Shown here piece after piece: positions 2 through 20,751 of a stretch of 64,000 nt of DNA. The DNA is taken from assembly GCA_965228475.1 (NCBI GenBank), contig OZ245817.1:3552001-3616000 (forward strand), written 5' to 3'. A program made the position numbers and the translations under genes. The notes beneath the pieces were generated by a model. It saw only the letters and a list, made by a program, of their open reading frames with translations. It was not told the DNA's origin and did no database searches. The number at the start of each line of letters is the position of its first letter. The stretch's first letter is position 1. Origin of the DNA: Myxococcota bacterium (GTDB taxonomy: Bacteria > Myxococcota_A > UBA9160 > JAFDDA01).

Positions 2-304
2 GTCGCGGCGGTCGAGCTCGGGAAGTACGGCGTGCGCGTGAACGTGGTCTGCCCCGAGGCGGGCAGCCCGGACATGATCGCGCCCTACCTGCCGCCGGGT
101 ATCGACTTCGAGAAGATCGACGCGGGCGCGCACCGCATGCTCGCCTACCAGAAGGACCGCAAGAACATCGAGCGCCTGAAGGACGTCGCCCGCATGATCG
201 CGTTCCTGGCTTCGGACGAGAGCCTCTCGTGCACCGGTGCCGACTTCGCCGTCGACAGCGGCTACACGATGGGACGGGTGCTGCCGGGCGTTCCCGGTTC
301 CTGA
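2..304 (+). CDS. SDR family oxidoreductase, C-terminal part (5' truncated by window edge)
   Basis: Frame reads VAAVELGKYGVRVNVVCP...VARMIAFLASDESLSCTGADFAVDSG, a typical SDR C-terminus. Confidence 0.85.
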   Translation, partial: VAAVELGKYGVRVNVVCPEAGSPDMIAPYLPPGIDFEKIDAGAHRMLAYQKDRKNIERLKDVARMIAFLASDESLSCTGADFAVDSGYTMGRVLPGVPGS

Positions 305-1506: not shown

Positions 1507-1564
1507 GTGCCCCCCACTCGTTCGAGTCGCGGAACGTAGCAGCCCAAGCTACGGTTCGGCGGCC

Positions 1565-3760
1565 TTGAGCCAGCCCATCGAACGCGCGCTCGCTCGTTTC
1601 GCCGGCGCCGTCGTCGATGCGTCCCAGCGCCACGCGCGCGCCGTCGTCGTTGCGGGCCTGCTCCTCACCCTGGCCGCCGGGTTCGCCGCTTCGCACCTCG
1701 TCGCCGACAGCGACCCGGACCGCATGACCGCAGCGGACCTGCCGTTCCGCGTGACGAAACGACAAATCGAAACCGAATTTCCGATGCTTCGTGACAGTTT
1801 CGTCATCGTCGTCGAGGCGACGCGCGGCGAACACGCTCGGGAAGCGGCCGGCACACTCGCCCGGCGTCTGGCCGAGGATGGCGAGCGTTTCCGGGCCGTC
1901 GCCGCACCGACGTCGGACCCGTTCTTCGAACGAAACGCCTGGCTCTACCTGCCCGAAGCCGCCTTCGAGGCGGCGCTGCGCTCCCTCCGCGAAGGAGCCA
2001 GCCCCGAGCCACGCTCGCCGCCCGCCCGGCAGATCCTGCTCGCGCAACCCGCGCTCGACGAAGACGGCCTCGCACCGGCCCTCGATGCGATCGCGGCGGT
2101 CCGGACGGCCGCCGCGGCGCTCCCCGAACGCGACGGACTGCGCGTCCGGGTGACGGGCGACCTCGCCGTGCTGACGGAGGAGATGTCCGAGATCCGCGAT
2201 CAGGTGCTCGTCGCGTCCCTCGTCTCGGTGCTGCTCGTGACGGCAGTGCTGATCCTCACCCTGCGCTCGTTCCGGCTCTTCCTCGCCACGCTGCTGCTCC
2301 TCCTCGTCGGTCTCGTCTGGACCGCCGGCTTCGCCGCCCTGGCCGTAGGCCGGCTGAACGTGCTGACGACGGCCTTCGCGGTCCTCTACATCGGACTCGG
2401 CGTCGACTTCGGGATCCACTTCGCCCTGGGCTTTCGCGAGCGGCGAGAGCGAGGCGCGGCTCCGGACGTCGCGCTCCGCGAGGCCGGCCGTGACGTCGGG
2501 AGCTCCCTCGCCTTCTGCGCCCTCACGACGGCGACCGGTTTCTTCGCCTTCGTGCCGACGGACTACACCGCGGTCGCCGAGCTCGGCCTGATCTCGGGAA
2601 CGGGCATGTTCCTGAGCCTGCTCGCCACCTTGACCTGGTACCCGGCGACGCTCGCCCTCGGCCTCGGCCGCTCGACCCGGCTCGACCCGCGCACGGGGGC
2701 CCGGCGCGAGATCACGCTTCCGAGCTTTCCGCTGCGGCATCCCGGTGCCGTGATCGCGGCGGCCGTGCTCCTGTGCGGGGTCGGCGCGGGCTTCGCGCGC
2801 GACGTCCGGTTCGACGACAACCCGTTGAACGTGCGGGACCCTCGCGTCGAGTCCGTGGCGGCGCTCGAAGAGCTGCTGGCGGACCCCGCACTCTCTCCGT
2901 GGACGGCCGAGGCTCTCGCAAGCGGTCCGCGCGCCGCGCGTGAGCTCGCGCAGGCGCTCGAGGCACTCCCCGAGGTCGCGCACGCGCACACGGTGCACGA
3001 CCTCCTTCCGCCCGATCAGGAGCGCCGGCTCGCCCGGATCGCCTCGCTCCCCGAGGCCGTTCGCCAACAGCTCGCGCCGGGCCTTCCCAAAACTGCGCTC
3101 GCCTTCGAAGACCTGCCGGAGTCCCTGCGGAGCCGATATCTCTCCCGAAGTGGCATCGCCCGGGTCGAGATCTTCCCGAGCGAGGACCTGACCGCGCCGG
3201 GCGCCCTCGCCCGCTTCGCCGACGCCGTGCGCCGCGTCGCCCCCGACGCCTCGGGCGCCGCCGTCGGCACCGTCGAGTTCGCGCGCGCGATCACGCGCGC
3301 GCTGAAGCAGGCCCTCGCCACCGCTGTCGCGGTGATCCTCGTGCTGCTGCTCCTGCTCTGGCGAAGCCCGCGCGACGCCATGATCACCCTCGCCCCCCTG
3401 GCCTTCGGCACGCTCACGATCGTCGCCTTCGCCGGCGCGCTCGGCCTCCCCTTCAACTTCGCAAACGTGATCGTGTTGCCGTTGCTGCTCGGCATCGGCG
3501 TCGACAGCGGGATCCACCTCGTGCACCGCCACCGGCTCGCGCTCGGCGCCGACGCGAACCTGCTCGAGACGAGCACCGCACGCGCCGTGCTCTTCAGCGC
3601 GCTCACGACGGGCCTGTCCTTCGCCACGATCTGCTTCGCTTCGCACGGGGGAATCGCTTCGCTCGCGCTGCTGCTGACGGTCGGGATCGGGGTCATGCTC
3701 GCCGCGAACCTGCTGCTCCTGCCCGCGCTGGTGGCCCGCTTCGGAAAGCGGGAGCGCTAG
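1565..3760 (+). CDS. MMPL/RND family lipid transporter (HpnN-like)
   Basis: Two TM repeats with IGLGVDFGIHF and LGIGVDSGIHL motifs; TTG start. Confidence 0.85.
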   Translation: MSQPIERALARFAGAVVDASQRHARAVVVAGLLLTLAAGFAASHLVADSDPDRMTAADLPFRVTKRQIETEFPMLRDSFVIVVEATRGEHAREAAGTLARRLAEDGERFRAVAAPTSDPFFERNAWLYLPEAAFEAALRSLREGASPEPRSPPARQILLAQPALDEDGLAPALDAIAAVRTAAAALPERDGLRVRVTGDLAVLTEEMSEIRDQVLVASLVSVLLVTAVLILTLRSFRLFLATLLLLLVGLVWTAGFAALAVGRLNVLTTAFAVLYIGLGVDFGIHFALGFRERRERGAAPDVALREAGRDVGSSLAFCALTTATGFFAFVPTDYTAVAELGLISGTGMFLSLLATLTWYPATLALGLGRSTRLDPRTGARREITLPSFPLRHPGAVIAAAVLLCGVGAGFARDVRFDDNPLNVRDPRVESVAALEELLADPALSPWTAEALASGPRAARELAQALEALPEVAHAHTVHDLLPPDQERRLARIASLPEAVRQQLAPGLPKTALAFEDLPESLRSRYLSRSGIARVEIFPSEDLTAPGALARFADAVRRVAPDASGAAVGTVEFARAITRALKQALATAVAVILVLLLLLWRSPRDAMITLAPLAFGTLTIVAFAGALGLPFNFANVIVLPLLLGIGVDSGIHLVHRHRLALGADANLLETSTARAVLFSALTTGLSFATICFASHGGIASLALLLTVGIGVMLAANLLLLPALVARFGKRER

Positions 3761-4655: not shown

Positions 4656-5396
4656 TCATCGCGTCGGCTGCGCGTCGCTGGAAGGCTCCGAGCCGGGCCG
4701 CTCGGCCTCGTAGAGGCTCACGAGCCGGGCGACCAGAACCGCGACGTAGAGGACGCCGACCACGGATTCGAGAATCTCGAGGGAGCGTGCAGGGCCGCTC
4801 TCCGGTGTGACGTCGCCGTACCCGAGCGTCGTCAGGGTCACGAAGCTCGCGTAGAGCAGGTCGGCCCAGGGCGGCGTCTTGCCCTGCCCCTCCGGGATCG
4901 CGAAAGAACCGGGCGAGACGGTCTCGAGCCAGGCGAAGCAGGCCGCAAAGGCCATGCCGAGCAGCAAGTAGACGCAGGCGGCGCCCGCCAGCGTATCGAC
5001 CCCGACGCGCCTGGCACCGAAGACCTCTCGGAAGACGAGGGCCGTGATCCACAGATGGAACGCGGCCTCGAACGCGAGGGACGCTGCCTCGAGGTTCCGC
5101 GAGGCCCGCACGACGTTCGCCGCGTCGGTTCCGGCCGCCGCGATGGCAAGCGCGCAGGCCAGACCGAAGGCGGCGCCGTTCGCGCCCGCCGCCAGAACGC
5201 CAGCGACCAGGACGAGAGCCGAGATGCCATGGAGGAGGACCGCGTCGGCGAGGTCGTGGCTGGCGTACGGATAGGCCAGCAGCAACCCGACCAGGCTCGC
5301 GAGCAGCAGGCGGAAGCGCCACCCCTCGGACGGGCTCGGGAGGGGCCCCGAGGCCGGGCGCACCCTTGCCCGGGTCGGCGGTTGGACGGCATGCAT
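4656..5396 (-). CDS. Potassium channel family protein (Ion_trans_2)
   Basis: Several TM helices and selectivity filter TLTTLGYGD; AGGAGG SD upstream. Confidence 0.85.
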   Translation of the reverse strand: MHAVQPPTRARVRPASGPLPSPSEGWRFRLLLASLVGLLLAYPYASHDLADAVLLHGISALVLVAGVLAAGANGAAFGLACALAIAAAGTDAANVVRASRNLEAASLAFEAAFHLWITALVFREVFGARRVGVDTLAGAACVYLLLGMAFAACFAWLETVSPGSFAIPEGQGKTPPWADLLYASFVTLTTLGYGDVTPESGPARSLEILESVVGVLYVAVLVARLVSLYEAERPGSEPSSDAQPTR

Positions 5397-5418
5397 CGGC
5401 GTCTCCTCCTCTCCCAGG

Positions 5419-5448
5419 AAACGCCCCTTTCGGCCCGAAACCCCGCAA
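5419..5448 (-). promoter_or_regulatory. Putative ECF sigma promoter, copy 1 (K+ channel)
   Basis: Minus strand TTGCGGGGTT TCGGGCCGAAAGGG GCGTTT, matching TTGCGGGnnTT-N13-GCGTTT; 22 nt before the ATG. Confidence 0.65.
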
Positions 5449-5512
5449 CGTTCTCGGAGTTCCGCGGGTTTCGCGTGCTCGGCTGGAGGGAACGCGGGCC
5501 CCCCCTGGTTTT

Positions 5513-5542
5513 TTGCGGGTTTTCGAAGCTCCCGCTGCGTTT
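5513..5542 (+). promoter_or_regulatory. Putative ECF sigma promoter, copy 2 (pqiA operon)
   Basis: TTGCGGGTTTT-CGAAGCTCCCGCT-GCGTTT; 17 nt before the ATG at 5560. Confidence 0.65.
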
Positions 5543-5559
5543 ATTCCCAGGAGGCCCCC

Positions 5560-6192
5560 ATGGTCCCTGGCCGAGACCCGAAATCCCTGGCTCGCGGAGC
5601 CGTCGCCTGCCACGCATGCGACTGGCTCCAGGAGCGAGTCGAGCTCTCCTCCGGCGAGCGGGCGCGCTGCGCCCGATGTGGGACCGAACTCTTCCGAAGC
5701 CACCGGGAAGGCTTCGACCGGCCGATCGCGCTGACCGTGGCGGCGGCCGTCTGCTTCGGTCTCGCCAACACCTTTCCACTCCTCGCCCTTTCCCTCGAGG
5801 GCCGCGTGCAGCACAGCACCATCCTCGACGGCGTGCTCGACCTCGCGGCGGACGGGCTCTGGATCGTCGCCGGCTTCGTCTTCCTGGTGACGATGGCGGT
5901 GCCGTTCCTGCAGATCGCCGGTCGATTCTACCTGCTCCTCCCCCTGTCGCGCGGCAGGCGAGCCCCTGGATTCCACCGAAGCCTGCGAAGCCTCTCGTGG
6001 CTCGGGCCGTGGGGGATGCTCGAGGTCTACCTGCTCGGCGTGATCGTGGCGATCGTCAAGCTCTCGGATCTGGCTCAGGTCGAGATCGGCGTCGCTTTCT
6101 ACGCCTTCCTGGCCCTGATCGTGCTCGAGATCGCCGCCGCCGCGAGCCTCGACCCTCATGCGATCTTCGAAGCCGCGGAGACCGCGCAATGA
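5560..6192 (+). CDS. pqiA: Paraquat-inducible protein A (PqiA/LetA-like), N-terminal half
   Basis: CxxC...CxxC zinc ribbon (CHAC, CARC); WGMLEVYLLGVIVAIVKL motif. Confidence 0.9.
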   Translation: MVPGRDPKSLARGAVACHACDWLQERVELSSGERARCARCGTELFRSHREGFDRPIALTVAAAVCFGLANTFPLLALSLEGRVQHSTILDGVLDLAADGLWIVAGFVFLVTMAVPFLQIAGRFYLLLPLSRGRRAPGFHRSLRSLSWLGPWGMLEVYLLGVIVAIVKLSDLAQVEIGVAFYAFLALIVLEIAAAASLDPHAIFEAAETAQ

Positions 6193-6803
6193 CGGGCACG
6201 ACGGCCAGGACGGCAGGCTTGCGCGCCTGCCTGAACTGCGAGGCGCTCTGGCCTCTCGCGGGCCCTTCGACGTGTGCGCGCTGCGGCGCCGATGTCCCGC
6301 TGCGCCTGCCCGAGAGCCTCTCGCGAACCCTCGCCCTGCTCCTCGCTGCCGCCGCACTGTATGTCCCTGCGAACTGGTTCCCGATCATGACCGTCCGCCG
6401 CCTCGGCCAGGGTGAGCCGGCCACCATCCTCGGCGGCTGTCAGCATCTGTTCGAGTCCGGCATGTACGGGCTCGCGGCCCTCATCTTCTTCGCGAGCGTG
6501 CTCGTGCCGGGCCTCAAGCTCGTGGGCCTCGCCTATCTGGTGGCGATGACCCATCGGCGCTCTCGCAAGCGGCTGCTCGAACGCACGCGTCTCTACCACG
6601 TGATCGAGATTTTCGGCCGCTGGTCGATGATCGACGTGTTCGTCATCGCGATTCTCGTGGCGCTCGTCCAGCTCGGCGCCCTCGCACGGATCGAGCCTGG
6701 GCTCGGCGCCACCTTCTTCTGTCTCGTCGTCGTCATCACCATGTTCGCCTCGGCGAGCTTCGACCCCCGAATGATGTGGGATGTCCTGGAGGATCCATCA
6801 TGA
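6189..6803 (+). CDS. pqiA: Paraquat-inducible protein A (PqiA/LetA-like), C-terminal half
   Basis: ATGA overlap at 6189; CLNC/CARC; GRWSMIDVFVIAILVALVQ and SFDPRMMWD motifs. Confidence 0.9.
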   Translation: MTGTTARTAGLRACLNCEALWPLAGPSTCARCGADVPLRLPESLSRTLALLLAAAALYVPANWFPIMTVRRLGQGEPATILGGCQHLFESGMYGLAALIFFASVLVPGLKLVGLAYLVAMTHRRSRKRLLERTRLYHVIEIFGRWSMIDVFVIAILVALVQLGALARIEPGLGATFFCLVVVITMFASASFDPRMMWDVLEDPS

Positions 6804-8596
6804 GCGATCGAACCGACCCGCAGCACGCAGCGCAGGGCCTGCCCCGCACGCGCGTGGACCGCCGCCGGAGCATTCCCCTCGTCTGGTGGATCCCCATCGT
6901 GGCCCTGCTCGTCGGCGCTGGTGTGATCTACGACAGCTACGCGAGCCGCGGACCGACGGTGACGCTCCGCTTCAGCGACGGACAGGGCCTCGAGGCGGGC
7001 AAGACCCGCATCAAGTACAAGTCCGTCGAGATCGGCCTCCTGACCTCGATCCGTCTGAGCGACGATTTGAGCGGCGTCGTGGCCGAAGCGGAGATGGATC
7101 CCGGCACGGAAGGCCATCTCACCGACGCCACGGCCTTCTGGCGGGTGACACCCCAGGTCGGGTTCTCGGGCGTGACCGGTCTCGACACCCTCGTGTCGGG
7201 AGCCTACGTCGCGGTGTACCCCGCGGCCGGGACGCCACAACGCGAGTTCGAGGTGGCCGATCACGCACCGATCGATCTGGGTCATCGTGACGCTCTGCAC
7301 CTCCGCCTGCGATCCGCGCGCGGCGCGGTCCCGATCGGTGCTCCCGTCACCTGGCGGGGCATGATCGCCGGAGAGGTCACGCGCACGACGGTGGCCGATG
7401 ACGGGGAAGGGTTCGTGATCCACGCCCTGGTGGACCGCCCCTTCGCCGACGGGGTGCGGGCGGGCACGCGGTTCTGGCGCGAGAGCGGCATCGACGTTTC
7501 GCTCGGAGCCGCGGGGCTCGAAGTCCATGCTGGCTCCGTGCGCTCCATCGTGACGGGCGGCATCGCCTTCGACGGGCCCGAGGAAGCCGAAGGCCCGGCG
7601 CTCGAGCCCGGCGCCGAGCTTCCGCTCTTCGCCAACGAGAAGGCCGCCAAGGACGCGGACGTCCGCGCGGCCGGCCTGATCGTCCGGGTGGAGGCCCGCG
7701 ACGCCACGGCCCTTTCCGACGGCGCCCCGGTGCTCTACCGCAAGTCGCGTATCGGCCGCGTGCTCGGCCACGCCCTTTCGCCCGACGCCCGCACCATCCA
7801 AGCGGAGGTGCTGATCGAGGCCCGCTTCGCGCCGCTCGTCCGGGCGAACACGCGGTTCTGGAACGCCAGCGGCGTGCGCGTCGAGATGGGCCCGACCGGG
7901 CTCGCCGTCGAGACGGGACCCCTCGCCCAGGTGGTCGGCGGAGGACTCTCCCTCGCGACGCCCGACCGGCCGGGAGCGCCCGCGGAACCGGGCCGACTGT
8001 TCGCGCTGGCCGAGGAACCGTCCGAGCGATGGCTCGCCTGGGCCCCGGAGATCTGGCTGGCCGGCGAGGACCCGAGCAAGGCCGTCGCCCACGCCCTGCC
8101 CCGGACGGCGCGGCCCGCCGGGCTCGCGATCGAACTGGTCTCGGACGAGGCCGGCTCGGTCTCGCCGGGCGCGGGCGTGTACTTCAGGCGCCTCCGTGTG
8201 GGGGAAATCGTTTCGCGCGAGCTCGCCGGCGACGCGCGAACCGTGCGCATCCACGCTCGCATCGAGCGTCGCTACGCGCACCTCGTCCGCCAGAACTCGC
8301 GATTCTGGAACGCCAGCGGAATCGGAGTCGACATGGGCCTCGGCGGACTTCGCGTCCAGACCGAATCGATGGAAGCGCTGCTCGCAGGCGGCGTGGCCTT
8401 CGCGACCCCCGACCCGGCCGGCGCCCCGGCGAAACGAGGCAGCTCGTTCGCGCTGCACGGGAAGGGTCGAGACGAATGGCGCGACTGGGCGCCGGCGCTC
8501 GGCGTCGGCGGGTCCGCTCCGGCCGCGGTCACGGCGGCCGGCACGGCCGGCACCGCCAGGGCCGGGGGCTTCTGGGGGCGGCTGCTGGGACGCTGA
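6800..8596 (+). CDS. Multi-MCE (MlaD) domain protein, PqiB/LetB-like, four MCE domains
   Basis: WWIPIVALL TM; four repeats of the GxxVxYRxxxxGxV...T(R/A)FW pattern; ATGA overlap with pqiA. Confidence 0.9.
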   Translation: MSDRTDPQHAAQGLPRTRVDRRRSIPLVWWIPIVALLVGAGVIYDSYASRGPTVTLRFSDGQGLEAGKTRIKYKSVEIGLLTSIRLSDDLSGVVAEAEMDPGTEGHLTDATAFWRVTPQVGFSGVTGLDTLVSGAYVAVYPAAGTPQREFEVADHAPIDLGHRDALHLRLRSARGAVPIGAPVTWRGMIAGEVTRTTVADDGEGFVIHALVDRPFADGVRAGTRFWRESGIDVSLGAAGLEVHAGSVRSIVTGGIAFDGPEEAEGPALEPGAELPLFANEKAAKDADVRAAGLIVRVEARDATALSDGAPVLYRKSRIGRVLGHALSPDARTIQAEVLIEARFAPLVRANTRFWNASGVRVEMGPTGLAVETGPLAQVVGGGLSLATPDRPGAPAEPGRLFALAEEPSERWLAWAPEIWLAGEDPSKAVAHALPRTARPAGLAIELVSDEAGSVSPGAGVYFRRLRVGEIVSRELAGDARTVRIHARIERRYAHLVRQNSRFWNASGIGVDMGLGGLRVQTESMEALLAGGVAFATPDPAGAPAKRGSSFALHGKGRDEWRDWAPALGVGGSAPAAVTAAGTAGTARAGGFWGRLLGR

Positions 8597-8648
8597 GCGC
8601 AGGCGCGGCTCGGGCTGGCGCCGGTCTCGAGGACCGTGAAGCGGGGCT

Positions 8649-9236
8649 CTAGCCTTCGAAGCTCGGCCCGAGCTCGCGTCGTAGCCAGGCCCGGGCGAAG
8701 GTCCAGTCGCCCTCTACCGTTCGCGCCGAGACGCCGAGAGCCGCGGCCGCCTCCGGGGTCGTCATCCCGGCGAAGTAGCGGAGTTCGACGACACGTGCCT
8801 GGCGCTCCGAGAGCGCTTCGAGCCGCTTGAGCGCTTCGTCCAGCGCGAGCAGACCCTCGAGATCCACGCCGACCTCGGGGGACGACGGCCCCTGGGTCAG
8901 CGTCACCCGGCTCCAATCCCCGCCACGCTTCTGGCGCTTCCGCGCGACGGCGTGGTTGACGAGCAGACGTCGCATGGCCTGGGCACCGATTGCCAGGAAG
9001 TGCGTCCGCCCTTGCCATTCCACGCGCCTCTGATCGACGAGCTTCTCGTACGCTTCATGGACGAGCCCCGTCGCATCCAGGGTGTGCCCCGGTCGCTCCC
9101 GATTGAGGTAGCCGCTCGCGATCCGACGCATCTCGTCGTAGACCATCGGTAGGAGTTCTTCCGCCGCGCGACGAGCCCGCTCGGGGTCGCCCTCGATCCG
9201 CGTCAGCTGCTGGGTGACGAGCGCCCGGAGATCCAT
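8649..9236 (-). CDS. ECF sigma factor, TIGR02999/ECF43-like (kinase-associated)
   Basis: LLPMVYDEMRRIA, HTLDATGLVHEAY, AMRRLLVNHA..RKRQKRGG, VVELRYFAG, RTVEGDWTFARAWL; ATG at 9236. Confidence 0.9.
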   Translation of the reverse strand: MDLRALVTQQLTRIEGDPERARRAAEELLPMVYDEMRRIASGYLNRERPGHTLDATGLVHEAYEKLVDQRRVEWQGRTHFLAIGAQAMRRLLVNHAVARKRQKRGGDWSRVTLTQGPSSPEVGVDLEGLLALDEALKRLEALSERQARVVELRYFAGMTTPEAAAALGVSARTVEGDWTFARAWLRRELGPSFEG

Positions 9237-9279
9237 GGGGAGAAAGGTAGCCGGGTTTTCGCCGGGCCTCCGAGACCCT

Positions 9280-12200
9280 TCACGGCGAGCGCTCGAGGAG
9301 CGCTCGGGCGACGCGGCCGTCGAGGGGGTCGGGTTCTTCCGGCCAGCCGTCGAGCGACCGTTCGATGAGCCGGCGGGCTTCGGCCGGGCGGCCCGCATCG
9401 ACGTGCCAGCGGGCGAGATCGATCGCGGCCCGGAGACCGAAGGCGCGCGCACCGCGTGCTTCGGCCAGGGCAAGCGCCCGTTCGAGCGCCTCGACCCCAG
9501 CCGCGTCTCCCGCGTCGAGCCGGAGCCGCGCCGCACCCTGGAGTCGCAGCAGTTCGGGCTCCCCGAGACGGCTGAGGGTACCGGAGGTGATCTCCAGCCC
9601 GGCGTCGACGGATTGCAGGGCCTCCTCGACCCGGCCGGCCTGGAGCTGGCTCTCGGCGAGGTGGCTCAACAGGAGATCCACGTAGAGGACGGCGCCCGCG
9701 GCTCGGGCCTCGGCGACGGTCCGCGCTGCCCGGTCCAGGGCCGCCGGCTGCCTCGAAAAGGCGTCCGCACAGGCGCCCTGCGCAGAAGCCACCTTCTCGA
9801 GGAACAGGATTCCATGATCGCGGCTCGAAGCTTCGGTCGGACGGGCGAGAGCCAACGCATCCTCCCTCGATCGGCGCAGAAGGTGAAGCGCAGCGATGAA
9901 GGTGCCAGCCAGGGCGCGGTTGAGCGCCTCGCTCGAACGCTCGGCCGTCGCGAGGGCGCACCTGGCGTGTCGATCCGCTTCCGCCCTTCGCCCGCTCAGC
10001 CACTCGACGAGCGCCAGGTACTCGTGCGCCACCACCTCGAGGTCTTCCGGGTAGACCTCGAGGGGCTTCACGCCGTGGGTTCGCCAGTCTTCGAGGACTC
10101 CCTCGAGGAGCGGGCGGCAGCGATCCAACTCGCCCTTCCAAAGGGCGATCTCTCCCTGCCCGGCCCGCGCGTAGAGGGCGACGCGACGGTCGCCGGCTCG
10201 CTCCGCGGCCTCGAGCAGGGCATCGGCGCGGGTCTCCGCATCGAGGGCGCCCGCCGTCCGATAGGATCCGAGCAACGCGACCAGGGTGGAGAGTCGGCTT
10301 GGCGTCTTCGGGTCCAGGCTCAGACACGCTTCGTGGGCTCGATGGAAGACCCCCCGGGCCGCCTCCGAACCCCAGCCGAGCGTCGCGGACAGCGCGTAGC
10401 CGAGCCCGGAAAGAATGATCACTTCGCGCTCGCGATCGACGACGCCCGGCGGCAGGCCGTCCACCGCCGCGAGGGCCCGCTCGAAGTGATGTCGCGCCTC
10501 GCGATACGCACAGACCTGCTGGGCCGCGGCCCCGGCCTCGACCCAGGCCTCGAGTGCCTCTTCCAGACGCCCCGCCCGCTCGGCATGATGGGCGAGCCAT
10601 TCCGGGTGCTCCGACAGCTCCGGGGCGAACCGCTCGCGCAGCAAGGCGCACACCTGCCCGTGCAGGGACCGTCGCTCCGGAGCGGGAATCGATTCGTAGG
10701 CGGCTTCCTCGATCAGCGCGTGGCGAAAGGCGTAGGCCGTACCGCCGTGCGCGTCCGCTCGACGGGTCAGAATCTCGGCTTCGACCAGGCCGGCGAGGTG
10801 GTGGTCCACCGCCGCAGGATCTCCATCCGCGAGCGCTCGCAACTGGGGCGTCGAGAAGTCGCGACCCAGGACGGAGGCGAGTTGAGCGAGCACCTTGCCC
10901 CGGCCGAGGCCGTCGAGACGCGCCATCAGGAGGTCCTGCAGGCTCGCCGGAATGCTCTCGCCCGAAGCACCCTCGAGCGATTCGAAACAGCGGATCAACT
11001 CGCCGACGAACAAGGGGTTGCCATCGGCTCTGGTGAAGACACGATCGACCGCCTCGGCCCGGACGTCGCTTCCGAGTCGCCCTTCCATCATCCGGCGCAC
11101 CTCACTCTTCCGCATGCGCCGAAGTGCGACGGGCGTGACGTGTTCGCGTCCCAACCAATCCAGCTGCATCCCGGGGCGGGCCGAGAGCACCAGCAGCAAC
11201 CGACTGGTCGGGATCTCCTGCACGAGCCCCTCGACCACTTCGAGCGAGCTCGGGTCCGCGAAATGCAGATCTTCGACGACGAGGACCGCCGGGCCCGGCG
11301 CTCCGAGCGCCAGGGCCCACCGCACCAGCAGATCCTTGGTTCGACGGCTCACCTGCTCGGGGGCGAGCGTCTCGGACGGTTCGCCACCGGGCAACGGGAT
11401 GCGGAGCAGCTGCGCGACCAGCGGAAGGGCATCCTCCGCATCGGCCAGGCCCGAGCGCGAAACCCCCGCGCGCAGGATCTCGTAGGCGTGTTTCGGGTCT
11501 CGCGCCTCCCGCAGCGAGAGCTGTTCCCGAACGAGCTCGACCAGGGAGTGCAAGGGGCTCTGCTGCGAGAAGGATCGATTGCGGCACTCCGCCACGAAGC
11601 GTGGAGCCGTGCCGAGGCGAGCGCGAAGCTCTGCGACGAGTCGGGACTTCCCCACTCCGGCCTCGCCCGTCACGAGGACGACCTGCCCGACTCCCTCGAG
11701 CACCTGCTCGAAGCGATCCTCCAGCAGGGCCAGTTCCTGGGTTCGACCGACGAGGGCGTGGCGGTGGGCGGGGGTGCCTTCGCGCGGAGAGAGAACCTCG
11801 AAGGTCGACACCTGGGCGCTGTCGGGTCGTGGGCGAACTTCGAAACCGTCGCCACACGTCGCCAGGACCGCCTCCGTGGCGACGACGCTCCCGGCCGGGG
11901 CGCTCTGAAGGAGCCGTCGCGCGATCGTGAGCGTCGGCCCGAAGGTTCGGGGGCGCCCTGGCCCCTCTTCGATCAACGCGGGTCCCGTGTGGACGGCCAC
12001 CGCGACGGCCATCGGGGCCTGCGCGTCGAAATCCTGCCCAAAGGCCTCGCGCACTTCACACGCGGCACGCAGGGCGCGCTCGGGAGCATCTTCGAGCGCG
12101 GCCGGATGGCCGAAGTAGGCGATGAAGCCCTCGGCCTGAGGCTCGGCCACGGAGCCTCCGTAGCGAGCGACGACGGCCTCGCAGCGGGCGAGGGCCCCGC

Positions 12201-13350
12201 GCACGCGCTCGTCGAGCGCCTCGAGTTCGAGGTCCGACGCCAGCGCATCGCTGTTGCGCAGCTCGACGCACCAGACGGTGAGCGGCCGTCGCGCCCGCCG
12301 ACCGAGATGCTCGCTGGTGGACGTGAGCGAACCGGGCCGCGTCTCCGTGGCCGCGTCCGCGTTTCCCTCAAGCAGCTCGGCCAGCGCGGCGGCACTCGCC
12401 GGCCGCGCCGCGGGATCCTTCGCGAGGGCCTGGAGGATCGCCGCCTCGAGGTCCCGCGGCACGCCCGGCGCGCGCCGGGAAGGCTTTTCCGGGTCGGCGA
12501 AACGCTGCAGCTCGGACAGCGCTGCGGCCGTCTGGGCACGGAACGTCGCCTCTCCGGTCAGGAGCTCATGGAGAACGAGACCCAGCGCGTAGAGGTCCGT
12601 GCGCTCGCTCACCTCCGCGTCGAAGACGAGCTGCTCGGGGGCCATGTAGGCCGGCGTGCCGACCAGCGCTCCCGACCCGCCGTGCTCACGGGTCGTCGCA
12701 ATTCCGAAATCGACGATTCGCGGCTCTCCTTCGGCGTCGAGCAGGATGTTCGCGGGCTTGAGGTCGCGGTGAAGGACCCCCCGGTCGTGGGCCGCCTGGA
12801 GGCCGGCGCACAGGCGCGCGCCGATCCGGCGAACCCGCTCGGGAGACAGCGGGCCGACCCGCTTCAGCAGATCCGAGAGATCGCCGCCGTCCACGTACTC
12901 CATGGTCAAGAACAGTTCGTCGCCGACCTGGCCGACGTCGTACACGCGGCCCACCGCCGGGTGGGTCACTTCGCGTGCGAGGCGCACCTCCTCGAGCAGC
13001 CGGTCGCGATGCTCGGGACCCGGGTCACGAACCCGCTTCAGGGCGACGGTGACGCCGAGCGCCGTGTCCTCCACGCGGAAGACCTCGCCCATGCCGCCGT
13101 GCCCGATGCGTTCGAGCACACGGTAGCGGTCGGCAAGGAGGGTCCCGGTCCCGAGAACGGCCGAGCTGGCGGCTTCGCGCAGGGGAACGTGATGGCGGAG
13201 CAACGACTCGACCTCCTCTCGGAGGGAATCGTCCCCGGGGCATTCTCGTTCGAGGAAGCCGGCGCGCGCCTCGCCCTCGAGCTTCACCGCCTCGAGGAAC
13301 AGCTCCCGGACCCGTTCGAAGCGGCTCTTTCCCGAACCCGTGTTCTCCAG
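9280..13350 (-). CDS. Ser/Thr kinase - degenerate class III cyclase - AAA/STAND ATPase - TPR fusion
   Basis: GHGGMGEV, VALK, HRDLKPAN, DFG, APE; cyclase-like segment; Walker A GEAGVGKS and Walker B VLVVEDLH; helical repeats. Start proposed at CTG 13350 after AGGAGG (ORF track start 13287). Confidence 0.9.
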   Translation of the reverse strand: MENTGSGKSRFERVRELFLEAVKLEGEARAGFLERECPGDDSLREEVESLLRHHVPLREAASSAVLGTGTLLADRYRVLERIGHGGMGEVFRVEDTALGVTVALKRVRDPGPEHRDRLLEEVRLAREVTHPAVGRVYDVGQVGDELFLTMEYVDGGDLSDLLKRVGPLSPERVRRIGARLCAGLQAAHDRGVLHRDLKPANILLDAEGEPRIVDFGIATTREHGGSGALVGTPAYMAPEQLVFDAEVSERTDLYALGLVLHELLTGEATFRAQTAAALSELQRFADPEKPSRRAPGVPRDLEAAILQALAKDPAARPASAAALAELLEGNADAATETRPGSLTSTSEHLGRRARRPLTVWCVELRNSDALASDLELEALDERVRGALARCEAVVARYGGSVAEPQAEGFIAYFGHPAALEDAPERALRAACEVREAFGQDFDAQAPMAVAVAVHTGPALIEEGPGRPRTFGPTLTIARRLLQSAPAGSVVATEAVLATCGDGFEVRPRPDSAQVSTFEVLSPREGTPAHRHALVGRTQELALLEDRFEQVLEGVGQVVLVTGEAGVGKSRLVAELRARLGTAPRFVAECRNRSFSQQSPLHSLVELVREQLSLREARDPKHAYEILRAGVSRSGLADAEDALPLVAQLLRIPLPGGEPSETLAPEQVSRRTKDLLVRWALALGAPGPAVLVVEDLHFADPSSLEVVEGLVQEIPTSRLLLVLSARPGMQLDWLGREHVTPVALRRMRKSEVRRMMEGRLGSDVRAEAVDRVFTRADGNPLFVGELIRCFESLEGASGESIPASLQDLLMARLDGLGRGKVLAQLASVLGRDFSTPQLRALADGDPAAVDHHLAGLVEAEILTRRADAHGGTAYAFRHALIEEAAYESIPAPERRSLHGQVCALLRERFAPELSEHPEWLAHHAERAGRLEEALEAWVEAGAAAQQVCAYREARHHFERALAAVDGLPPGVVDREREVIILSGLGYALSATLGWGSEAARGVFHRAHEACLSLDPKTPSRLSTLVALLGSYRTAGALDAETRADALLEAAERAGDRRVALYARAGQGEIALWKGELDRCRPLLEGVLEDWRTHGVKPLEVYPEDLEVVAHEYLALVEWLSGRRAEADRHARCALATAERSSEALNRALAGTFIAALHLLRRSREDALALARPTEASSRDHGILFLEKVASAQGACADAFSRQPAALDRAARTVAEARAAGAVLYVDLLLSHLAESQLQAGRVEEALQSVDAGLEITSGTLSRLGEPELLRLQGAARLRLDAGDAAGVEALERALALAEARGARAFGLRAAIDLARWHVDAGRPAEARRLIERSLDGWPEEPDPLDGRVARALLERSP

Positions 13351-13437
13351 GGGACCTCCTCGGTTTCCCCGCTTCAGTCTATCCGATCCCCGCGTGACGC
13401 GGACCGCATGCCGTTCGAACGGCGCTTCGAGCGAGGC

Positions 13438-16400
13438 TCAAACCCGCGCCCGTGCGGGGAACTCGACGCGGAAGAACAGGGCGTAGAGGGCGGGGACGGC
13501 GAGGAGGGTGAGCAGCGTTCCGAAGCCGATCCCGAAACTGATCACCACAGCCATCGCCGAGAAGAGCGGGTCTGCCGGAACCATGAGCGGGATCAGCCCG
13601 AGCACGGTCGTGAGCGTCGTCATCATGACCGGCTGGAAGCGGGAGACCGACGCAAAGACCACCGCATCGTATGGCGTCTCGCCCGAATCGATCTCGCTCT
13701 GGATCGTTTCCAACAGGACGATCGCATTGTTGATGATGATGCCCGCGAGGGAAAGAAAACCGAGCGTCGCCATGAAACCCAGGTAGGAGTCCGTGAGCCA
13801 GAGGCCCGCGATGGCCCCGATGAAGGTGATCGGGATCGTGATGAAGACGATCGCCGGCTTCAGGAAGGAATTGAACTGCCACACCAGGATGACGACCATG
13901 GCTGCCAGGGCGTGTGGCACGAACGCCGCGAGCGCCTGGTTCGCATCGTTCGCATCCTTGGTCTCGCCGTCCAACTGGAGTGAGTAGCCGAGCGGGAGTT
14001 CCGAGGAGAGTCGTTCCAGAGCGGGTGCAAGTTCCTCTTCGAGCTGCGCCGCCTGGAGCCAGGCGTGTTTGGCGCTGATCGTGATCGTCCGGGCGAGGTC
14101 ACGGCGTTCGATTCGCGAGAGCTGCGTGCGCGCTTCGAAATCCGCGACCTGCAGGAGCCCCACGTCCGCCCCACGTCCCTCGGAGTAGATGTTCAGACTT
14201 CGGACGCGGTCCAGGTTCCGGCGTTCGGAATCGATCGCCCGGAACACGACCGGGATGACGCGGTCCGCCTCGCGGTAGTCGGTCACGTACTCTCCGCTGA
14301 AGTAGCCGTTCAGACTCGTCGCGACCTCCCGGGAAGAGACGCCCGCACGTCGGGCCCGGGGTTGATCCACGCGGATGCGGACCTTGCTGACGCGATTCTC
14401 CCAGTCGCTGTGCACGTCGATCGTCCCGGGGATGGCACGCAGGGCCGACCGGACGTCTTCCCCGAGAGCCGCCAGGCGATCGCGGTGCTGGCCGGAGACG
14501 CGGATCTTCACGAGACCGGTCTCCGAGGTGCCGAGCCAGAACTTCTTGACGCGACTGAAGACGACCGGGTGGTGCTCGGTCATGCGACGCCGCGTGCGGT
14601 CGAGGAGCGCGTCCACGGCCTCGACCGACTTCGTGTTGACGAGCACGAAGGCGACGTTGGGAGCCGCGTCGCGCGGCGAGAGCGGCACGAAGAAACGCGG
14701 GCCCCCGTAGCCCACGTAGGCGACGTGGCTCGCGACCTCGGGGTTCGTCTCCTCGTCGCCCAGCCAGTCGAGGAGCCGACGGACCTCCGCATCCGTTGCA
14801 TGAAAGCCGTACCCGGCGGGCAGGTCCACGTAGATCATGAATTGGGATCGCGGCGAGTTCGGCATGAACTGCTGGGGCACTTCCTCGAGCAGCACGACGG
14901 AACTCGCCAGCGCAGCGCCGATGGCCGACACGAACGAGACGGGCCGCCGCAGGACTCTCTCGAGCAGCGCCCGGTAGATCTGGAACATGCGTCCCTCGTA
15001 GGCTCGAGCGATCTGCTCGGGCGTCAGGATCTCCGGCTGCATCCAGCGGACGCACAGGAGCGGGGTCACGCACACGGCCAGCAGCCAGGAACACAGCAAG
15101 GTGACGGCGATCACGATCGTCATGGAGCGCAGGTATTCGCCGGTGTCGTCCGGCGCGAGGGCGAGAGGCATGAACGCCAGGATGGTCGTGATCGACGAGG
15201 TGAGCAGGGGAATCGCGAGGCTCCGGCCCGCGGCAATCGCAGCGTCACGGCGGTCTTCGCCCTCCCGAAGCCGGCGCCCGATCTCCTCCGCCATGACGAT
15301 GCCATTGTCGACGAGCAGCCCGAGGGCGATGATGAGCGTCGCCAGGCTGACGCGCTGCAACTCGATTCCGAGCACTCGCATGATGACGATCGTGAGGAGC
15401 ATGGTCATCGGCACGACGGTCCCGACGATGAGACCCGTCCGGACGCCCAGGAACACCATCACGACGACCAACACGATGCCGAGCGTCTCGTAGACGTTCA
15501 GCGCGACGCCCTGAACGGACTCCGCGACGTAACGCGCCTGGTAGGTGGCGAACTCCATCTGGTAGCCGACCGGGAGGCCCGCTTCGATCCGTTTCACCCG
15601 CTCGCGCAGCCGCGGGCCGAATTCCAGCACGTTGCCGCCCTTCATCATGGAGACCGCCAGGACCACCGCTGGCCGTCCCCCGAAGTAGGCCTTCGTCTCG
15701 GGCGGATCCACATACGCGCGATTGACGCGAACGAGGTCTTTCAGGTAGGCGACGTCCCCCGTCGCGGGGATCCGGATCAACAGGTTCTCGATGTCCTCGA
15801 CCGTCTCGAAGCTTCCCGAGGGCTCGATTGCCACGCTCAGCAGGCCGGTGTCGACGCTCCCACCCGGAAGGATCACGTTCTGGTCCCGCAGCGTCCGCTC
15901 GAGCTCGATCGGTGAGATGCCGTAGCGAGCCAGACGGGCGTCGCTCGTTTCGAGGTAGACCTGCTCGCGTTGTGCGCCGTGGAGAACCACCTTCTTCACG
16001 CCGTCGAGCGAGTAGATCTCGTCGCGCGCGGCTCGGGCCACGTCGCGCAGCTCGTGCATCGAGAAGCCGGCGGCCGTGATGGCGACCGTGGCCACGTAGA
16101 CGTCTCCGAACTCGTCGTTCACGAAGGGGCCGGCCGTACCTTCCGGCAGATCCTCCCGGACGTCGTTCATCTTGTTGCGCAGGTCCTGCCAGATGCGGGC
16201 CATGTCGAAGAAGCGATCCGAAACGATCACGTGCACGATCGCCATGCCCGCCTTCGAGCTGGCCTGGATGTGCTCCACCTCGGGAATCAACCGGATCTTC
16301 TTCTCGAGCTTGCGGGTGATCAGGTCTTCCACCCGCTCGGGCGACATGCCGGGATAGAGCGCGGTCACCACCGCTTCCCTCACGGTGACCTCGGGATCCT

Positions 16401-16506
16401 CCTTGCTCGGAAAGTCCAGATAGAAGGCCACCCCTGCGGCCATCGACAGCGCCGTGAGCAGACCGACGAGCCGCTCGTTGTCGAGGGCGAAGCGAGTCAG
16501 ATTCAT
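13438..16506 (-). CDS. RND efflux transporter permease (AcrB/AcrD/AcrF family)
   Basis: 1022 aa; YPGMSPERVE, ALGLLVDNGIV, RFQPVMMTTLTTVLGLIPL. Confidence 0.95.
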   Translation of the reverse strand: MNLTRFALDNERLVGLLTALSMAAGVAFYLDFPSKEDPEVTVREAVVTALYPGMSPERVEDLITRKLEKKIRLIPEVEHIQASSKAGMAIVHVIVSDRFFDMARIWQDLRNKMNDVREDLPEGTAGPFVNDEFGDVYVATVAITAAGFSMHELRDVARAARDEIYSLDGVKKVVLHGAQREQVYLETSDARLARYGISPIELERTLRDQNVILPGGSVDTGLLSVAIEPSGSFETVEDIENLLIRIPATGDVAYLKDLVRVNRAYVDPPETKAYFGGRPAVVLAVSMMKGGNVLEFGPRLRERVKRIEAGLPVGYQMEFATYQARYVAESVQGVALNVYETLGIVLVVVMVFLGVRTGLIVGTVVPMTMLLTIVIMRVLGIELQRVSLATLIIALGLLVDNGIVMAEEIGRRLREGEDRRDAAIAAGRSLAIPLLTSSITTILAFMPLALAPDDTGEYLRSMTIVIAVTLLCSWLLAVCVTPLLCVRWMQPEILTPEQIARAYEGRMFQIYRALLERVLRRPVSFVSAIGAALASSVVLLEEVPQQFMPNSPRSQFMIYVDLPAGYGFHATDAEVRRLLDWLGDEETNPEVASHVAYVGYGGPRFFVPLSPRDAAPNVAFVLVNTKSVEAVDALLDRTRRRMTEHHPVVFSRVKKFWLGTSETGLVKIRVSGQHRDRLAALGEDVRSALRAIPGTIDVHSDWENRVSKVRIRVDQPRARRAGVSSREVATSLNGYFSGEYVTDYREADRVIPVVFRAIDSERRNLDRVRSLNIYSEGRGADVGLLQVADFEARTQLSRIERRDLARTITISAKHAWLQAAQLEEELAPALERLSSELPLGYSLQLDGETKDANDANQALAAFVPHALAAMVVILVWQFNSFLKPAIVFITIPITFIGAIAGLWLTDSYLGFMATLGFLSLAGIIINNAIVLLETIQSEIDSGETPYDAVVFASVSRFQPVMMTTLTTVLGLIPLMVPADPLFSAMAVVISFGIGFGTLLTLLAVPALYALFFRVEFPARARV

Positions 16507-17609
16507 CGGAGCCGGCCTCCTGCCACCTGCTCCGGTTCGGCCCCGAACAGGGTGACGGGCTGATCGTCCGAGAGGAACTCGACGCCCGCGGCGGCCACGA
16601 TCATCCCCGCCTCGAGACCCTCGGAGACCTCGACCTGGTTGTTGCGCAGGCCGGATACCACGATCTCCGTCCGCTTCACCGTCCCCGTTGCCGCGTCGTA
16701 GACGAATACCGAGTAGGCGTCGTCCGCCTCTGCACGGAGCGCCGCCAGGGGTAGATGGACTCCCGACGAAGCGGCTCGCCGCCCCACGTAGACGAACTCG
16801 GCCTCTACGGTCATGCCCGGACGCATCTTCTCGGGGCGTTCGAGGAGTCGGATCTTCATCGGGAAGGCGTCGGCGATGCCAGCCCGGGAGCCGAGCTGGG
16901 AGATCCGGCCGGGGACCCGCTCTCCGGCGAGGGTGGGAAAGACGACCGTCACCGGGTCGCCCGCGGCGACGTAGAGGGCCACGGCCTCGGGAGCTGCGAG
17001 CGCCACTTCGTAGGAACGTTCGCTATCGAGCTCGAAGAGGGGCTCGCCCGCGGGGACTTCGACGAAGGCGTCCACCTTCTTCAGGGAGATGACGCCATCG
17101 AAAGGCGCGCGAAGGACCGCGTTGTTCAAGTCGCGCCGGGCGAGGCCCAGCTCGGCGCGAGCGGCCCGCGTGAGCCCCTCCGCATTCGCATGGGCCGCTC
17201 GCACGCGGTCGTAGGCGGACTGGCTGACGGCGCCGGCGTCCAACATCCGCTGGTATCGAGCGAACTCGGCCTGCTGGCGAATTCGCTCGGCCTCGGCCTG
17301 GCTCACGCGCGCCTGGGCCCGGTGCACGGCCAACTCGAACGGCTGCACGTCGAGTTCGGCGAGCACGTCGCCCTTCGAGACGCGGTCACCCAGGGAGGCC
17401 ACGACCCGCCGGACGCGGCCCGAGACTTCGAAGGAGAGCTGGCTCTCGACGGTGGGGCGCACCGTGCCGGAGATCCTGCGCTCCTCGGCGGCTCCTTCTT
17501 CCTGCACCCGCACCCACTTGATGGCCCGCAGGGGGATCTCGGGGGGCGGCGGTTCGGCGCCGCAGCCGACGACGGCCAACAGGCTGGCGAGAGCGATTCG
17601 TGACCTCAT
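16503..17609 (-). CDS. RND periplasmic adaptor (membrane fusion) lipoprotein
   Basis: Lipobox-like VVGC; LSFEVSGRV...GDVLAELD, LRAPFDGVI, RPGMTV; ATG 17609 with GGAGG SD. Confidence 0.9.
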   Translation of the reverse strand: MRSRIALASLLAVVGCGAEPPPPEIPLRAIKWVRVQEEGAAEERRISGTVRPTVESQLSFEVSGRVRRVVASLGDRVSKGDVLAELDVQPFELAVHRAQARVSQAEAERIRQQAEFARYQRMLDAGAVSQSAYDRVRAAHANAEGLTRAARAELGLARRDLNNAVLRAPFDGVISLKKVDAFVEVPAGEPLFELDSERSYEVALAAPEAVALYVAAGDPVTVVFPTLAGERVPGRISQLGSRAGIADAFPMKIRLLERPEKMRPGMTVEAEFVYVGRRAASSGVHLPLAALRAEADDAYSVFVYDAATGTVKRTEIVVSGLRNNQVEVSEGLEAGMIVAAAGVEFLSDDQPVTLFGAEPEQVAGGRLR

Positions 17610-17629
17610 GAGAGCCTCCCTGTGGCTTG

Positions 17630-17659
17630 AAACGCCACATCGGGAGGGAAGTCCCGCAA
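17630..17659 (-). promoter_or_regulatory. Putative ECF sigma promoter, copy 3 (RND operon)
   Basis: Minus strand TTGCGGGACTT-CCCTCCCGATGTG-GCGTTT; 20 nt before the ATG at 17609. Confidence 0.65.
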
Positions 17660-17783
17660 CCCTGATCGGGGTCGCCCTCACGGAAGGCGCCCCCGGGGCG
17701 CGGCGGGGGCCCTGGGGGGCGCGGCAAGCTCGGGGACTCGCCTGCCAGGTGCGAGGGACGTCCGCCGGGAAGGCTCGACGCCG

Positions 17784-17813
17784 TTGCGGGGTTTTTCGCG
17801 AAAGGTGGCGTTT
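17784..17813 (+). promoter_or_regulatory. Putative ECF sigma promoter, copy 4 (secreted protein)
   Basis: TTGCGGGGTTT-TTCGCGAAAGGTG-GCGTTT; 28 nt before the ATG at 17842. Confidence 0.65.
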
Positions 17814-17841
17814 CCCGGTGAGTGCCCATGAAGGAGACCCC

Positions 17842-18369
17842 ATGCGATCCCGAAGCCTCTTTGCCCTCGCCTCGCTCGGCACCCTCATCGCCGCAGGCCC
17901 CGCCGCGGCTGCCGGCTACGACCACGTCCTCTCCGTGGCCGCCGACCGCTCCCCGGTGACCCTCCGGGTCGGCCCCGGGGATACGATGACCTGGCTGAGC
18001 CTCCTCAAGCAGCCGGTCTGGGTGGAGCTGCGCCGCCAAGGTCGGCGAGATGCCTGCCCCGACGGTCGACGAGACGTCCGGATGCTCCTGCTTCCGGGTT
18101 CCTCGGTGAAGAGCTGCTGGCTGCACGAGGGCGTCTACGAGTACCGGGTGCTCGCTTCCGCCCCGAGGTCCGACGGTTGGGCGCGCACGAAAGCGATCGA
18201 ACTCCTGCTCGCCGACCACCCGCTGCGTCCCTTGGACGAGCAGGCCCGCGCAGAAGAACACGAGCGGGTCCGCGCGAGGCGCGAGGCGCGCGATCGTGCC
18301 GAGAGCCGGGACGCCGTGAGCTTCCGAAGAGCGGCGGTGGTCGGGACGTCGCTCCTCGGCACGCCCTAG
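17842..18369 (+). CDS. Hypothetical secreted protein, possibly cupredoxin-like fold
   Basis: AAGGAG SD; signal peptide ending AAA; VTLRVGPGDTMTW and GVYEYRV resemble cupredoxin strands. Confidence 0.6.
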   Translation: MRSRSLFALASLGTLIAAGPAAAAGYDHVLSVAADRSPVTLRVGPGDTMTWLSLLKQPVWVELRRQGRRDACPDGRRDVRMLLLPGSSVKSCWLHEGVYEYRVLASAPRSDGWARTKAIELLLADHPLRPLDEQARAEEHERVRARREARDRAESRDAVSFRRAAVVGTSLLGTP

Positions 18370-20127: not shown

Positions 20128-20751
20128 CTAGTCCTCGCGGCGACGGCGTGCGGCGGCGCCCGCCACGAGGAGCGTGCCGACGCCGTAGGCGGCGAAGGAG
20201 CTCACCTCGGGGATCGCCGGGCCGCCGCTTCCCTCGAGGCCGCGGGCCTCGGCGTCCACGATCAACGCGGCGAAGTCGACGCGGAAGTCACCGCGCTGGG
20301 CGATGATCTCGTAATCGAGCTGGCCGGTGCCGTCGATCGTCGCGTAGAGCGTGGCCGAGACGTCGATGCTCTCGATGCCGAAGTCGACCTCGATCGGGCC
20401 GGCGGCGCTCACGTCGTCGAGCTGGACGAGCATGTACTCGCGGCGCCAATCGAAGTCGTCGCGCACGCCGAGCAGGACCGAAGCGCCCACGGTGCGATGC
20501 GTGCCGACCTCGAAGCCGCCCTCGTCTTCGAGCGTGGTCGGCAGGAAGTTCCCCGGGAGCCACAACAGGAAGGAGTCGTCCTCGATGCCGGCGGCGGTGA
20601 TGTCGAAGGTGCCGCTGATCGAGGAATCGCCGCGCGCGGAGAGCCGCTCGCCGCCGAGTGCGTCGATGTCGGTGAACGTCGCGGCTTGGGCGGGGCCGGC
20701 CAGGGCAACGGTCGCAACGAGAGCGAAGAGGGCAGCGAATCGCATCAGCAT
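20128..20751 (-). CDS. Secreted protein with PEP-CTERM-like sorting signal
   Basis: Signal peptide (PAQA); C-terminal IPEVSS + hydrophobic helix + RRRR. Confidence 0.75.
   Translation of the reverse strand: MLMRFAALFALVATVALAGPAQAATFTDIDALGGERLSARGDSSISGTFDITAAGIEDDSFLLWLPGNFLPTTLEDEGGFEVGTHRTVGASVLLGVRDDFDWRREYMLVQLDDVSAAGPIEVDFGIESIDVSATLYATIDGTGQLDYEIIAQRGDFRVDFAALIVDAEARGLEGSGGPAIPEVSSFAAYGVGTLLVAGAAARRRRED

Follow-up and report, generated by a model that had tools for sequence, protein, structure and literature searches.

Sigma factors of the extracytoplasmic function (ECF) group ECF43 work together with protein kinases. Phosphorylation has been described to provide the charge for core-polymerase binding (PMC13147305, PMC8999054). 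Reviews name few studied members, all of them proteobacterial (PMC8999054, PMC8103513). The closest described pairs are EcfK-PknS of Xanthomonas citri (PMC13147305) and EcfP-PknT of Vibrio parahaemolyticus (PMC8999054, PMC8103513), and 87.8% of the ECF43 partner kinases carry one transmembrane helix, with the tetratricopeptide repeats (TPR) being extracytoplasmic (PMC7826278). Here, we analysed a stretch of 64,000 nt from a Myxococcota genome (GCA_965228475.1, contig OZ245817.1, positions 3,552,001 to 3,616,000 of the forward strand; hereafter the window), in which a block at 4656 to 18369 holds an ECF43-type sigma factor, an adjacent Hanks-type kinase and four copies of the bipartite motif TTGCGGGnnTT-N13-GCGTTT. 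We conclude that this motif is probably the -35/-10 promoter of one ECF43 subclade, read by the single ECF43-type sigma of this genome, as judged from its uniqueness in the genome, its conservation at a syntenic locus (L015), the enrichment of family sigmas around motif copies in a motif-first metagenome scan and a shared recognition helix. An earlier reading of the letters alone (the sequence-only reading) had proposed the motif as cognate promoter of the local sigma, which the unique sigma, L015 and the co-occurrence in motif-first and sigma-first surveys now make likely. Its gene calls (channel, two PqiA genes, MlaD x4, sigma, Pkinase, ACR_tran, RND_mfp) hold as well. The features of the block are as follows, with scores in bits from the matrix described below.

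4656..5396, minus strand: K+ channel gene (Ion_trans_2, TLGYGD filter), with an orthologue in L015
5419..5448, minus strand: promoter-like site 1, with -35 TTGCGGG, T-tract and -10 GCGTTT; 31.6 bits, joint first genome-wide; predicted start 5412 (A)
5513..5542, plus strand: promoter-like site 2; 26.4 bits; predicted start 5549 (A); counterpart ahead of pqiA1 in L015
5560..6192, plus strand: PqiA/LetA half 1, by family profile match
6189..6803, plus strand: PqiA/LetA half 2, by family profile match
6800..8596, plus strand: four-MCE protein, PqiB/LetB-like (Pfam MlaD x4; best PDB match LetB/YebT, E 2.7e-108)
8649..9236, minus strand: ECF43-type sigma of 195 aa (Sigma70_ECF, TIGR02999)
9244..9249, minus strand: TACCTT, putative housekeeping -10 for leaderless transcription, 7 nt ahead of the sigma ATG, which lacks a Shine-Dalgarno (SD) sequence; kept in L015
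9280..13350, minus strand: soluble Hanks kinase with N-terminal extension, kinase, degenerate cyclase-like, AAA_16, helix-turn-helix (HTH) and TPR parts; putative CTG start
13438..16506, minus strand: permease of the resistance-nodulation-division (RND) family, AcrB-type (ACR_tran)
16503..17609, minus strand: RND periplasmic adaptor (RND_mfp)
17630..17659, minus strand: promoter-like site 3, the weakest; 20.0 bits with the external matrix; predicted start 17623 (A)
17784..17813, plus strand: promoter-like site 4; 31.6 bits; predicted start 17820 (G)
17842..18369, plus strand: orphan protein with a signal-peptide-like start, modelled at low confidence as a beta-sandwich with a long helix

The local sigma, which likely starts at ATG 9236, scores 180 bits against PF07638 (Sigma70_ECF; E 4.7e-53) and 193-194.6 bits against TIGR02999 (cut-off 126). 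We take TIGR02999 to correspond to ECF43, given the shared features (Sigma70_ECF, Thr motif, adjacent kinase). Ten proteins of the genome match this profile; the local sigma, lying between the motif copies, is the only one above the cut-off, and the runner-up reaches 44.6 bits. Region 2.2 reads DATG with Thr56, a Thr-bearing motif replacing the DAED as in ECF43 (consensus QTTA). Thr56 was equated with the phosphorylated Thr of ECF43 via this motif, and its column holds T in 57 and S in 2 of 59 aligned sigmas. The linker carries Thr112, and the recognition helix reads RTVEGDW. A Hanks kinase gene ends 43 nt ahead of the sigma, at position -1 rather than +1, and no anti-sigma-like gene was seen in the block. 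Among solved structures, none close to this sigma family was found (best E 1.4e-4).

With the ECF43 group, this pair thus shares the Sigma70_ECF domain, an S/T in region 2.2 and the neighbouring kinase; however, the group was described from Proteobacteria only, with the kinase at +1 (PMC7826278), whereas here a soluble kinase stands at -1 in a Myxococcota genome. EcfK resembles the local sigma in its Sigma70_ECF domain, in the Thr at its T51 (equivalent to Thr56) and in a single acidic residue (QATE in EcfK, DATG here), and by spacing Thr112 lies near the position of T106 (PMC13147305). As the T51A form of EcfK still works (PMC13147305), Asp54 may by analogy permit basal activity. EcfP likewise replaces DAED with a Thr-bearing motif and has an envelope-related output, namely polymyxin resistance, but its STTA lacks an acidic residue, unlike DATG (PMC8999054, PMC8103513). 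PknS, too, is a neighbouring Hanks kinase whose kinase domain follows an N-terminal extension, predicted to be helical in PknS; yet it is a transmembrane receptor controlling a type VI secretion system (T6SS), whereas the block kinase has no clear membrane helix and carries cyclase-like, AAA and TPR parts (PMC13147305). In contrast to EcfK/PknS (PMC13147305), the kinase gene here precedes the sigma gene, and MCE, RND and channel genes are the putative targets.

All four motif copies named by the sequence-only reading were found at the listed positions and strands with no mismatch, and no further copy appeared at up to two mismatches. Shuffled sequences (n=100) held 0.04 copies on average and never reached four. 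Throughout the genome (5,006,157 bp) the exact motif occurs four times, every copy inside the block, and spacers of 8-12 or 14-19 gave no copy at all. Since the two halves occur singly 32 and 945 times, only ~0.003 joint matches would be expected. The gap between TTGCGGG and GCGTTT is a fixed 17 bp in all four oriented copies, one of which stands ahead of each flanking transcription unit. Start codons follow sites 1-4 after 22, 17, 20 and 28 nt, each with an SD-like GGAG/GAGG, which agrees with the 17-28 nt given earlier. Motif position 37, the predicted transcript start, is A, A, A and G at sites 1-4. The copies thus show the traits of ECF promoters: they are bipartite and oriented, have a fixed spacer and CGT in the -10, the latter being a classical ECF trait (PMC8103513), and lie directly upstream of genes.

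The sequence-only reading had proposed a matrix scan as a check. A position matrix built from 13 sites outside the window, all in other genomes, recovered the window sites at genome-wide ranks 1, 2, 3 and 5 (31.6, 31.6, 26.4 and 20.0 bits). Rank 4 (24.0 bits) is an intergenic site at G000:C1:965524-965553 (+) in locus L323, reading TCGCGGGGTTC-N13-GCGTTA. This fifth candidate lies ~90 nt ahead of an exported SIMPL/DUF541 gene (G000:965641), ~2.6 Mb from the block, and scores above window site 3. The regulon, earlier described as self-contained, may therefore not be closed.

A syntenic locus from Myxococcota, L015, encodes a sigma 72% identical to the local one and keeps two motif copies at the same spacing. 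One copy lies within the 3' end of the channel gene, ahead of pqiA1, the other ahead of a divergent exported protein. The kinase-sigma pair of L015 is convergent with genes for outer-membrane factor, adaptor, RND, channel, pqiA, pqiA and mce, all read in one direction, and the contig stops short of the start of this run. Among the best 80 of 364 confirmed sigma loci the motif was found in ten, nine of which belong to a single Acidobacteriota clade (two of them from the same assembly). A slightly stricter motif was present at 9 of the 20 loci whose helix reads E[GSA] and at none of the remaining 60. ECF43-type sigmas are abundant in uncultured phyla: four Acidobacteriota genomes hold 8-16 family matches apiece, and each has two motif copies beside a motif-linked paralogue plus 2-4 other loose matches (controls, 0-3). 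Sigmas of the same order as the local one go with variant motifs at unchanged spacing, with TGGCGGG/ACGTAG paired to the helix RTAERDW and further -10 boxes reading GCGGTA or GCGTCT; ahead of the RND adaptor gene of L159 no variant motif was found. The recognition helix as a sufficient predictor of the motif was rejected on account of four sigmas with an identical helix and no motif.

Several side observations concern these loci. At L161:10414 and L160:8003 the variant site stands ahead of a short gene that points away from the sigma and looks like part of a histidine kinase. In L043, L067, L074, L045 and L063 we saw by eye look-alike bipartite elements with other letters, just past the sigma stop and before kinase genes, which suggests a family-wide promoter architecture. 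At L158:11514-13460 (G027) a same-order ECF43-type sigma adjoins a gene with an apparent resemblance to that of the T6SS protein VgrG, echoing the context of EcfK.

The converse survey started from the motif. A metagenome scan yielded at least 118 stretches, 80 of which (on 79 contigs) were examined. A family sigma was encoded in 17 of the 80 (16 of the 79 contigs), a kinase in 20 and either in 27; if such sigmas were as frequent as in the richest genomes, ~1.0 would be expected, a contrast inflated by the relatedness of the contigs. Twelve of the 13 sigmas with readable helices carry RTVE[GSAN][DE]W. In a tree of 150 sequences the motif-bearing sigmas form three groups within one clade (support 0.93), interspersed with motif-less members. 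Positions that had not been used in the search are conserved over 75 sites (C24 in 69, G22 in 58, a purine at 37 in 59). When a wider pattern was used and 17 loci picked by hand were included, 55 of the 95 sites at GC-rich loci had an SD-preceded start within 60 nt, compared with 0 of 19 at lower-GC loci. A match in L210 falls within a repeated, CRISPR-array-like element and likely arose by chance.

Several findings weigh against this promoter assignment. Wrong-spacer controls peak at 20.8 bits, so that site 3 (20.0) on its own does not stand above control. The exact motif occurs in none of 60 relatives, and the matches elsewhere are not independent, stemming from about three lineages. The sigmas of L016-L018 and L078 carry the helix RTVEGDWTF with no local motif, and loose matches across their genomes stay at control level. 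Conversely, the motif-first contig L268 encodes a sigma from outside the motif-bearing clade, and other TIGR02999 paralogues are encoded 5-8 kb from two distal sites in Acidobacteriota. Due to these last two observations, paralogue sigmas may cross-read the motif. Lastly, the published ECF43 promoter prediction, a non-diagnostic one at group level, is GTC (-35)/CAG (-10) as opposed to TTGCGGG/GCGTT here (PMC7826278). The sigma itself is patchy, with a homologue (E 1e-30) in 33 of 225 class genomes and none found in a same-genus genome (89% complete); a looser motif pattern matches in 18 of the 225, mostly once each, and of these matches the ones at known sigma loci were traced.

An addition compatible with the promoter assignment is that transcription from the RND promoter reads through into kinase and sigma and provides meaningful positive feedback, as the sequence-only reading had suggested. 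Within the window this is physically possible, since no terminator-like site was found between the co-oriented RND, kinase and sigma genes (gaps of 87 and 43 nt), and on the homologous contig L250 a motif facing the same way as the sigma stands 2.1 kb upstream of it. The conserved layout speaks against it: of 16 motif-first contigs, 13 have motif and sigma divergent, one has them convergent and two have them co-oriented, and in the differently arranged L015 no motif points into kinase-sigma. Moreover, candidate -10 elements of their own precede both genes; TACCTT lies 6-7 nt ahead of the SD-less sigma ATG in both orthologues (window and L015) and looks like a separate housekeeping, leaderless start. 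We therefore regard a meaningful feedback as possible but doubtful. At 9248-9259 (+) the window also holds TAGCCGGGTTTT, which resembles a decayed -35 half facing away from the sigma with no -10 after it, at the position where many homologous loci carry an intact divergent site.

It appears improbable that the motif is the promoter of a different ECF sigma of this genome, with the ECF43 pair as a passenger. Nine other ECF-like genes do score weakly on TIGR02999, CGT(T) -10 boxes recur across many ECF groups (PMC8103513), and some distal Acidobacteriota sites lie near other paralogues; however, the top five sites of the genome are all away from these nine genes, the enrichment in other lineages concerns one sigma subclade, and relatives devoid of this sigma are also devoid of the exact motif. 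Still less credible is an operator bound by a DNA-binding regulator. Short palindromes occur within some spacers and the kinase has a weak HTH_20 match below the cut-off, but the motif itself is not a palindrome and keeps a strict orientation, its gap of 17 bp is free, and a purine stands where the start is expected; the block contains no regulator gene and, by consensus scan, no sigma-70 promoter. An origin of the copies as chance matches, repeat element or assembly artefact is largely refuted and carries next to no weight: the four copies did serve to define the pattern, but the external matrix recovers them, their spacers are unrelated, and the assembled contigs of two public runs (X1 over the whole stretch, X2 from 4308), which may be the window's own source, differ from it by no letter. 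An RNA family or shared hairpin at the copies was likewise rejected, given the lack of any Rfam match and of a common fold.

If the ECF43-type sigma reads this promoter, its kinase is the probable input. The kinase likely starts at CTG 13350 (-), behind the SD GAGGAGG; the public gene call (1335 aa) begins at GTG 13287 and thereby truncates a conserved N-terminal extension. This extension ahead of the kinase domain, a trait of the PknS/PknT type, is common to 79 of 111 kinases at sigma loci, and the five other kinases of the genome align with the block kinase only from residue 56-72. The catalytic K, HRD, DFG and APE are intact, as are Walker A and Walker B of the AAA_16 NTPase. The canonical arrangement of one transmembrane helix and extracytoplasmic TPR is absent: a hydropathy scan gave no clear membrane helix, with a 19-residue peak of 1.77 located in the AAA domain vs 2.3-2.8 for membrane proteins of the window. 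Thus, the neighbouring-kinase frame of ECF43, invoked by the sequence-only reading, fits as to the adjacent intact kinase but not as to the membrane layout, which that reading had missed. The order of kinase, cyclase-like, AAA and TPR parts follows TIGR03903 (TOMM kinase/cyclase) along residues 80-1291 at 470.5 bits, below the cut-off of 705.75, and resembles that of STAND NTPases; from this domain order we read the kinase as STAND-like, differing from TIGR03903 members in its pairing with a sigma. Its cyclase-like domain is apparently degenerate rather than an active class III nucleotide cyclase, as judged by the alignment, in which the metal-binding aspartates at the positions we presume for cyclases are not kept, and by the lack of a PF00211 match at E 0.01. 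The same soluble layout adjoins ECF43-type sigmas in L015, L160 and L161. A modelled kinase-sigma complex scored 0.59 (best control 0.01), with at least 46% contact agreement between runs and a partner pLDDT (predicted local distance difference test) of at least 79. Of the reference pairs, 116 of 157 solved and 2 of 215 mismatched ones reached the mark, but at 0.60 or less only 18 of the 157 and both mismatches did. The model lends weak support to this kinase acting on the sigma.

Taken together, these features suggest the following course of events. Kinase and sigma would each be expressed from a separate housekeeping-type start. The TPR part would bind a cytoplasmic ligand, and the AAA domain would oligomerise the kinase, which would then phosphorylate Thr56, perhaps Thr112 too, and thereby allow the sigma to bind core polymerase. 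The holoenzyme would start ~7 nt past GCGTTT and switch on the MCE lipid tunnel, the RND pump, the K+ channel, the exported protein and possibly the distal SIMPL gene, an output that would serve envelope maintenance in this lineage. The likely input is a signal from within the cytoplasm, detected by the TPR/AAA part; a soluble STAND-like kinase implies that such a signal can drive the pathway. More tentatively, this STAND (NLR-like) receptor-kinase could sense a cytoplasmic danger ligand, for instance a mislocalised lipid or a product of phages or predators, with the phosphorylated sigma remodelling the envelope through a portable TTGCGGG-N17-GCGTT promoter that one sigma subclade shares across Myxococcota and Acidobacteriota; we consider this extension unlikely. 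If true, an 'extracytoplasmic function' sigma would have been rewired to an innate-immune-style cytoplasmic sensor.

Motif targets in other loci include TLC/Omp85 fusions, cytochrome c, OsmC, beta-barrel and PEGA proteins (8 of the 20 scanned targets matched no family), and exported and membrane proteins prevail among them. Judging from these, the envelope/lipid-stress module proposed by the sequence-only reading fits this lineage but is not general, as targets differ by lineage. Different lineages have different sets of genes behind this promoter, which in that respect behaves like a portable switch. A sharp promoter consensus combined with a recognisable sigma subclade makes such regulons readable from genomes and offers a list of targets that can be put to the test in a family of regulators mapped poorly so far. 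In a literature search that covered few subscription journals, neither this promoter nor this kinase pairing turned up. In the Acidobacteriota-type loci L214:1790-4264, L279:3789-6272 and L029 the motif stands ahead of TLC genes (ATP/ADP transporter-like members of the major facilitator superfamily), and the TLC protein of L214 is fused to an Omp85 domain, an unusual combination of inner- and outer-membrane parts.

Among the target genes, the pqiA-mce unit resembles E. coli LetAB/PqiAB in combining a PqiA-family membrane part with a multi-MCE periplasmic protein; here, PqiA is split over two genes and four MCE domains are present, compared to three in PqiB and seven in LetB. A PqiC gene was not seen in the block. 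The genome has a second pqiA-pqiA-mce operon (G000:C1:553486-556489; 38-64% identity) with an RND gene close by (541096-544164), and no motif lies upstream of this operon among the genome-wide matrix matches. The orphan exported protein found no homologue among 2301 candidates, and a relation to the exported target of L015 was not detectable; its model has a pLDDT of 63.5, with a best fold match of Z 7.5 and Atlas leads below 0.9. GC content is flat along the block except for a dip at the RND gene. A clean insertion site could not be established. The same-genus genome has the flanks on separate contigs with different neighbours, and the queries used detected no copy of the block there. To the left of the block (window 262-3760) lie a glycosyltransferase family 21 gene and an MMPL-family transporter gene, possibly lipid-related and with no motif. 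To the right, 20128-20751 (-) encodes an exported protein that matches no Pfam family and ends in a C-terminal sorting-like tail, which we take to be PEP-CTERM-like.

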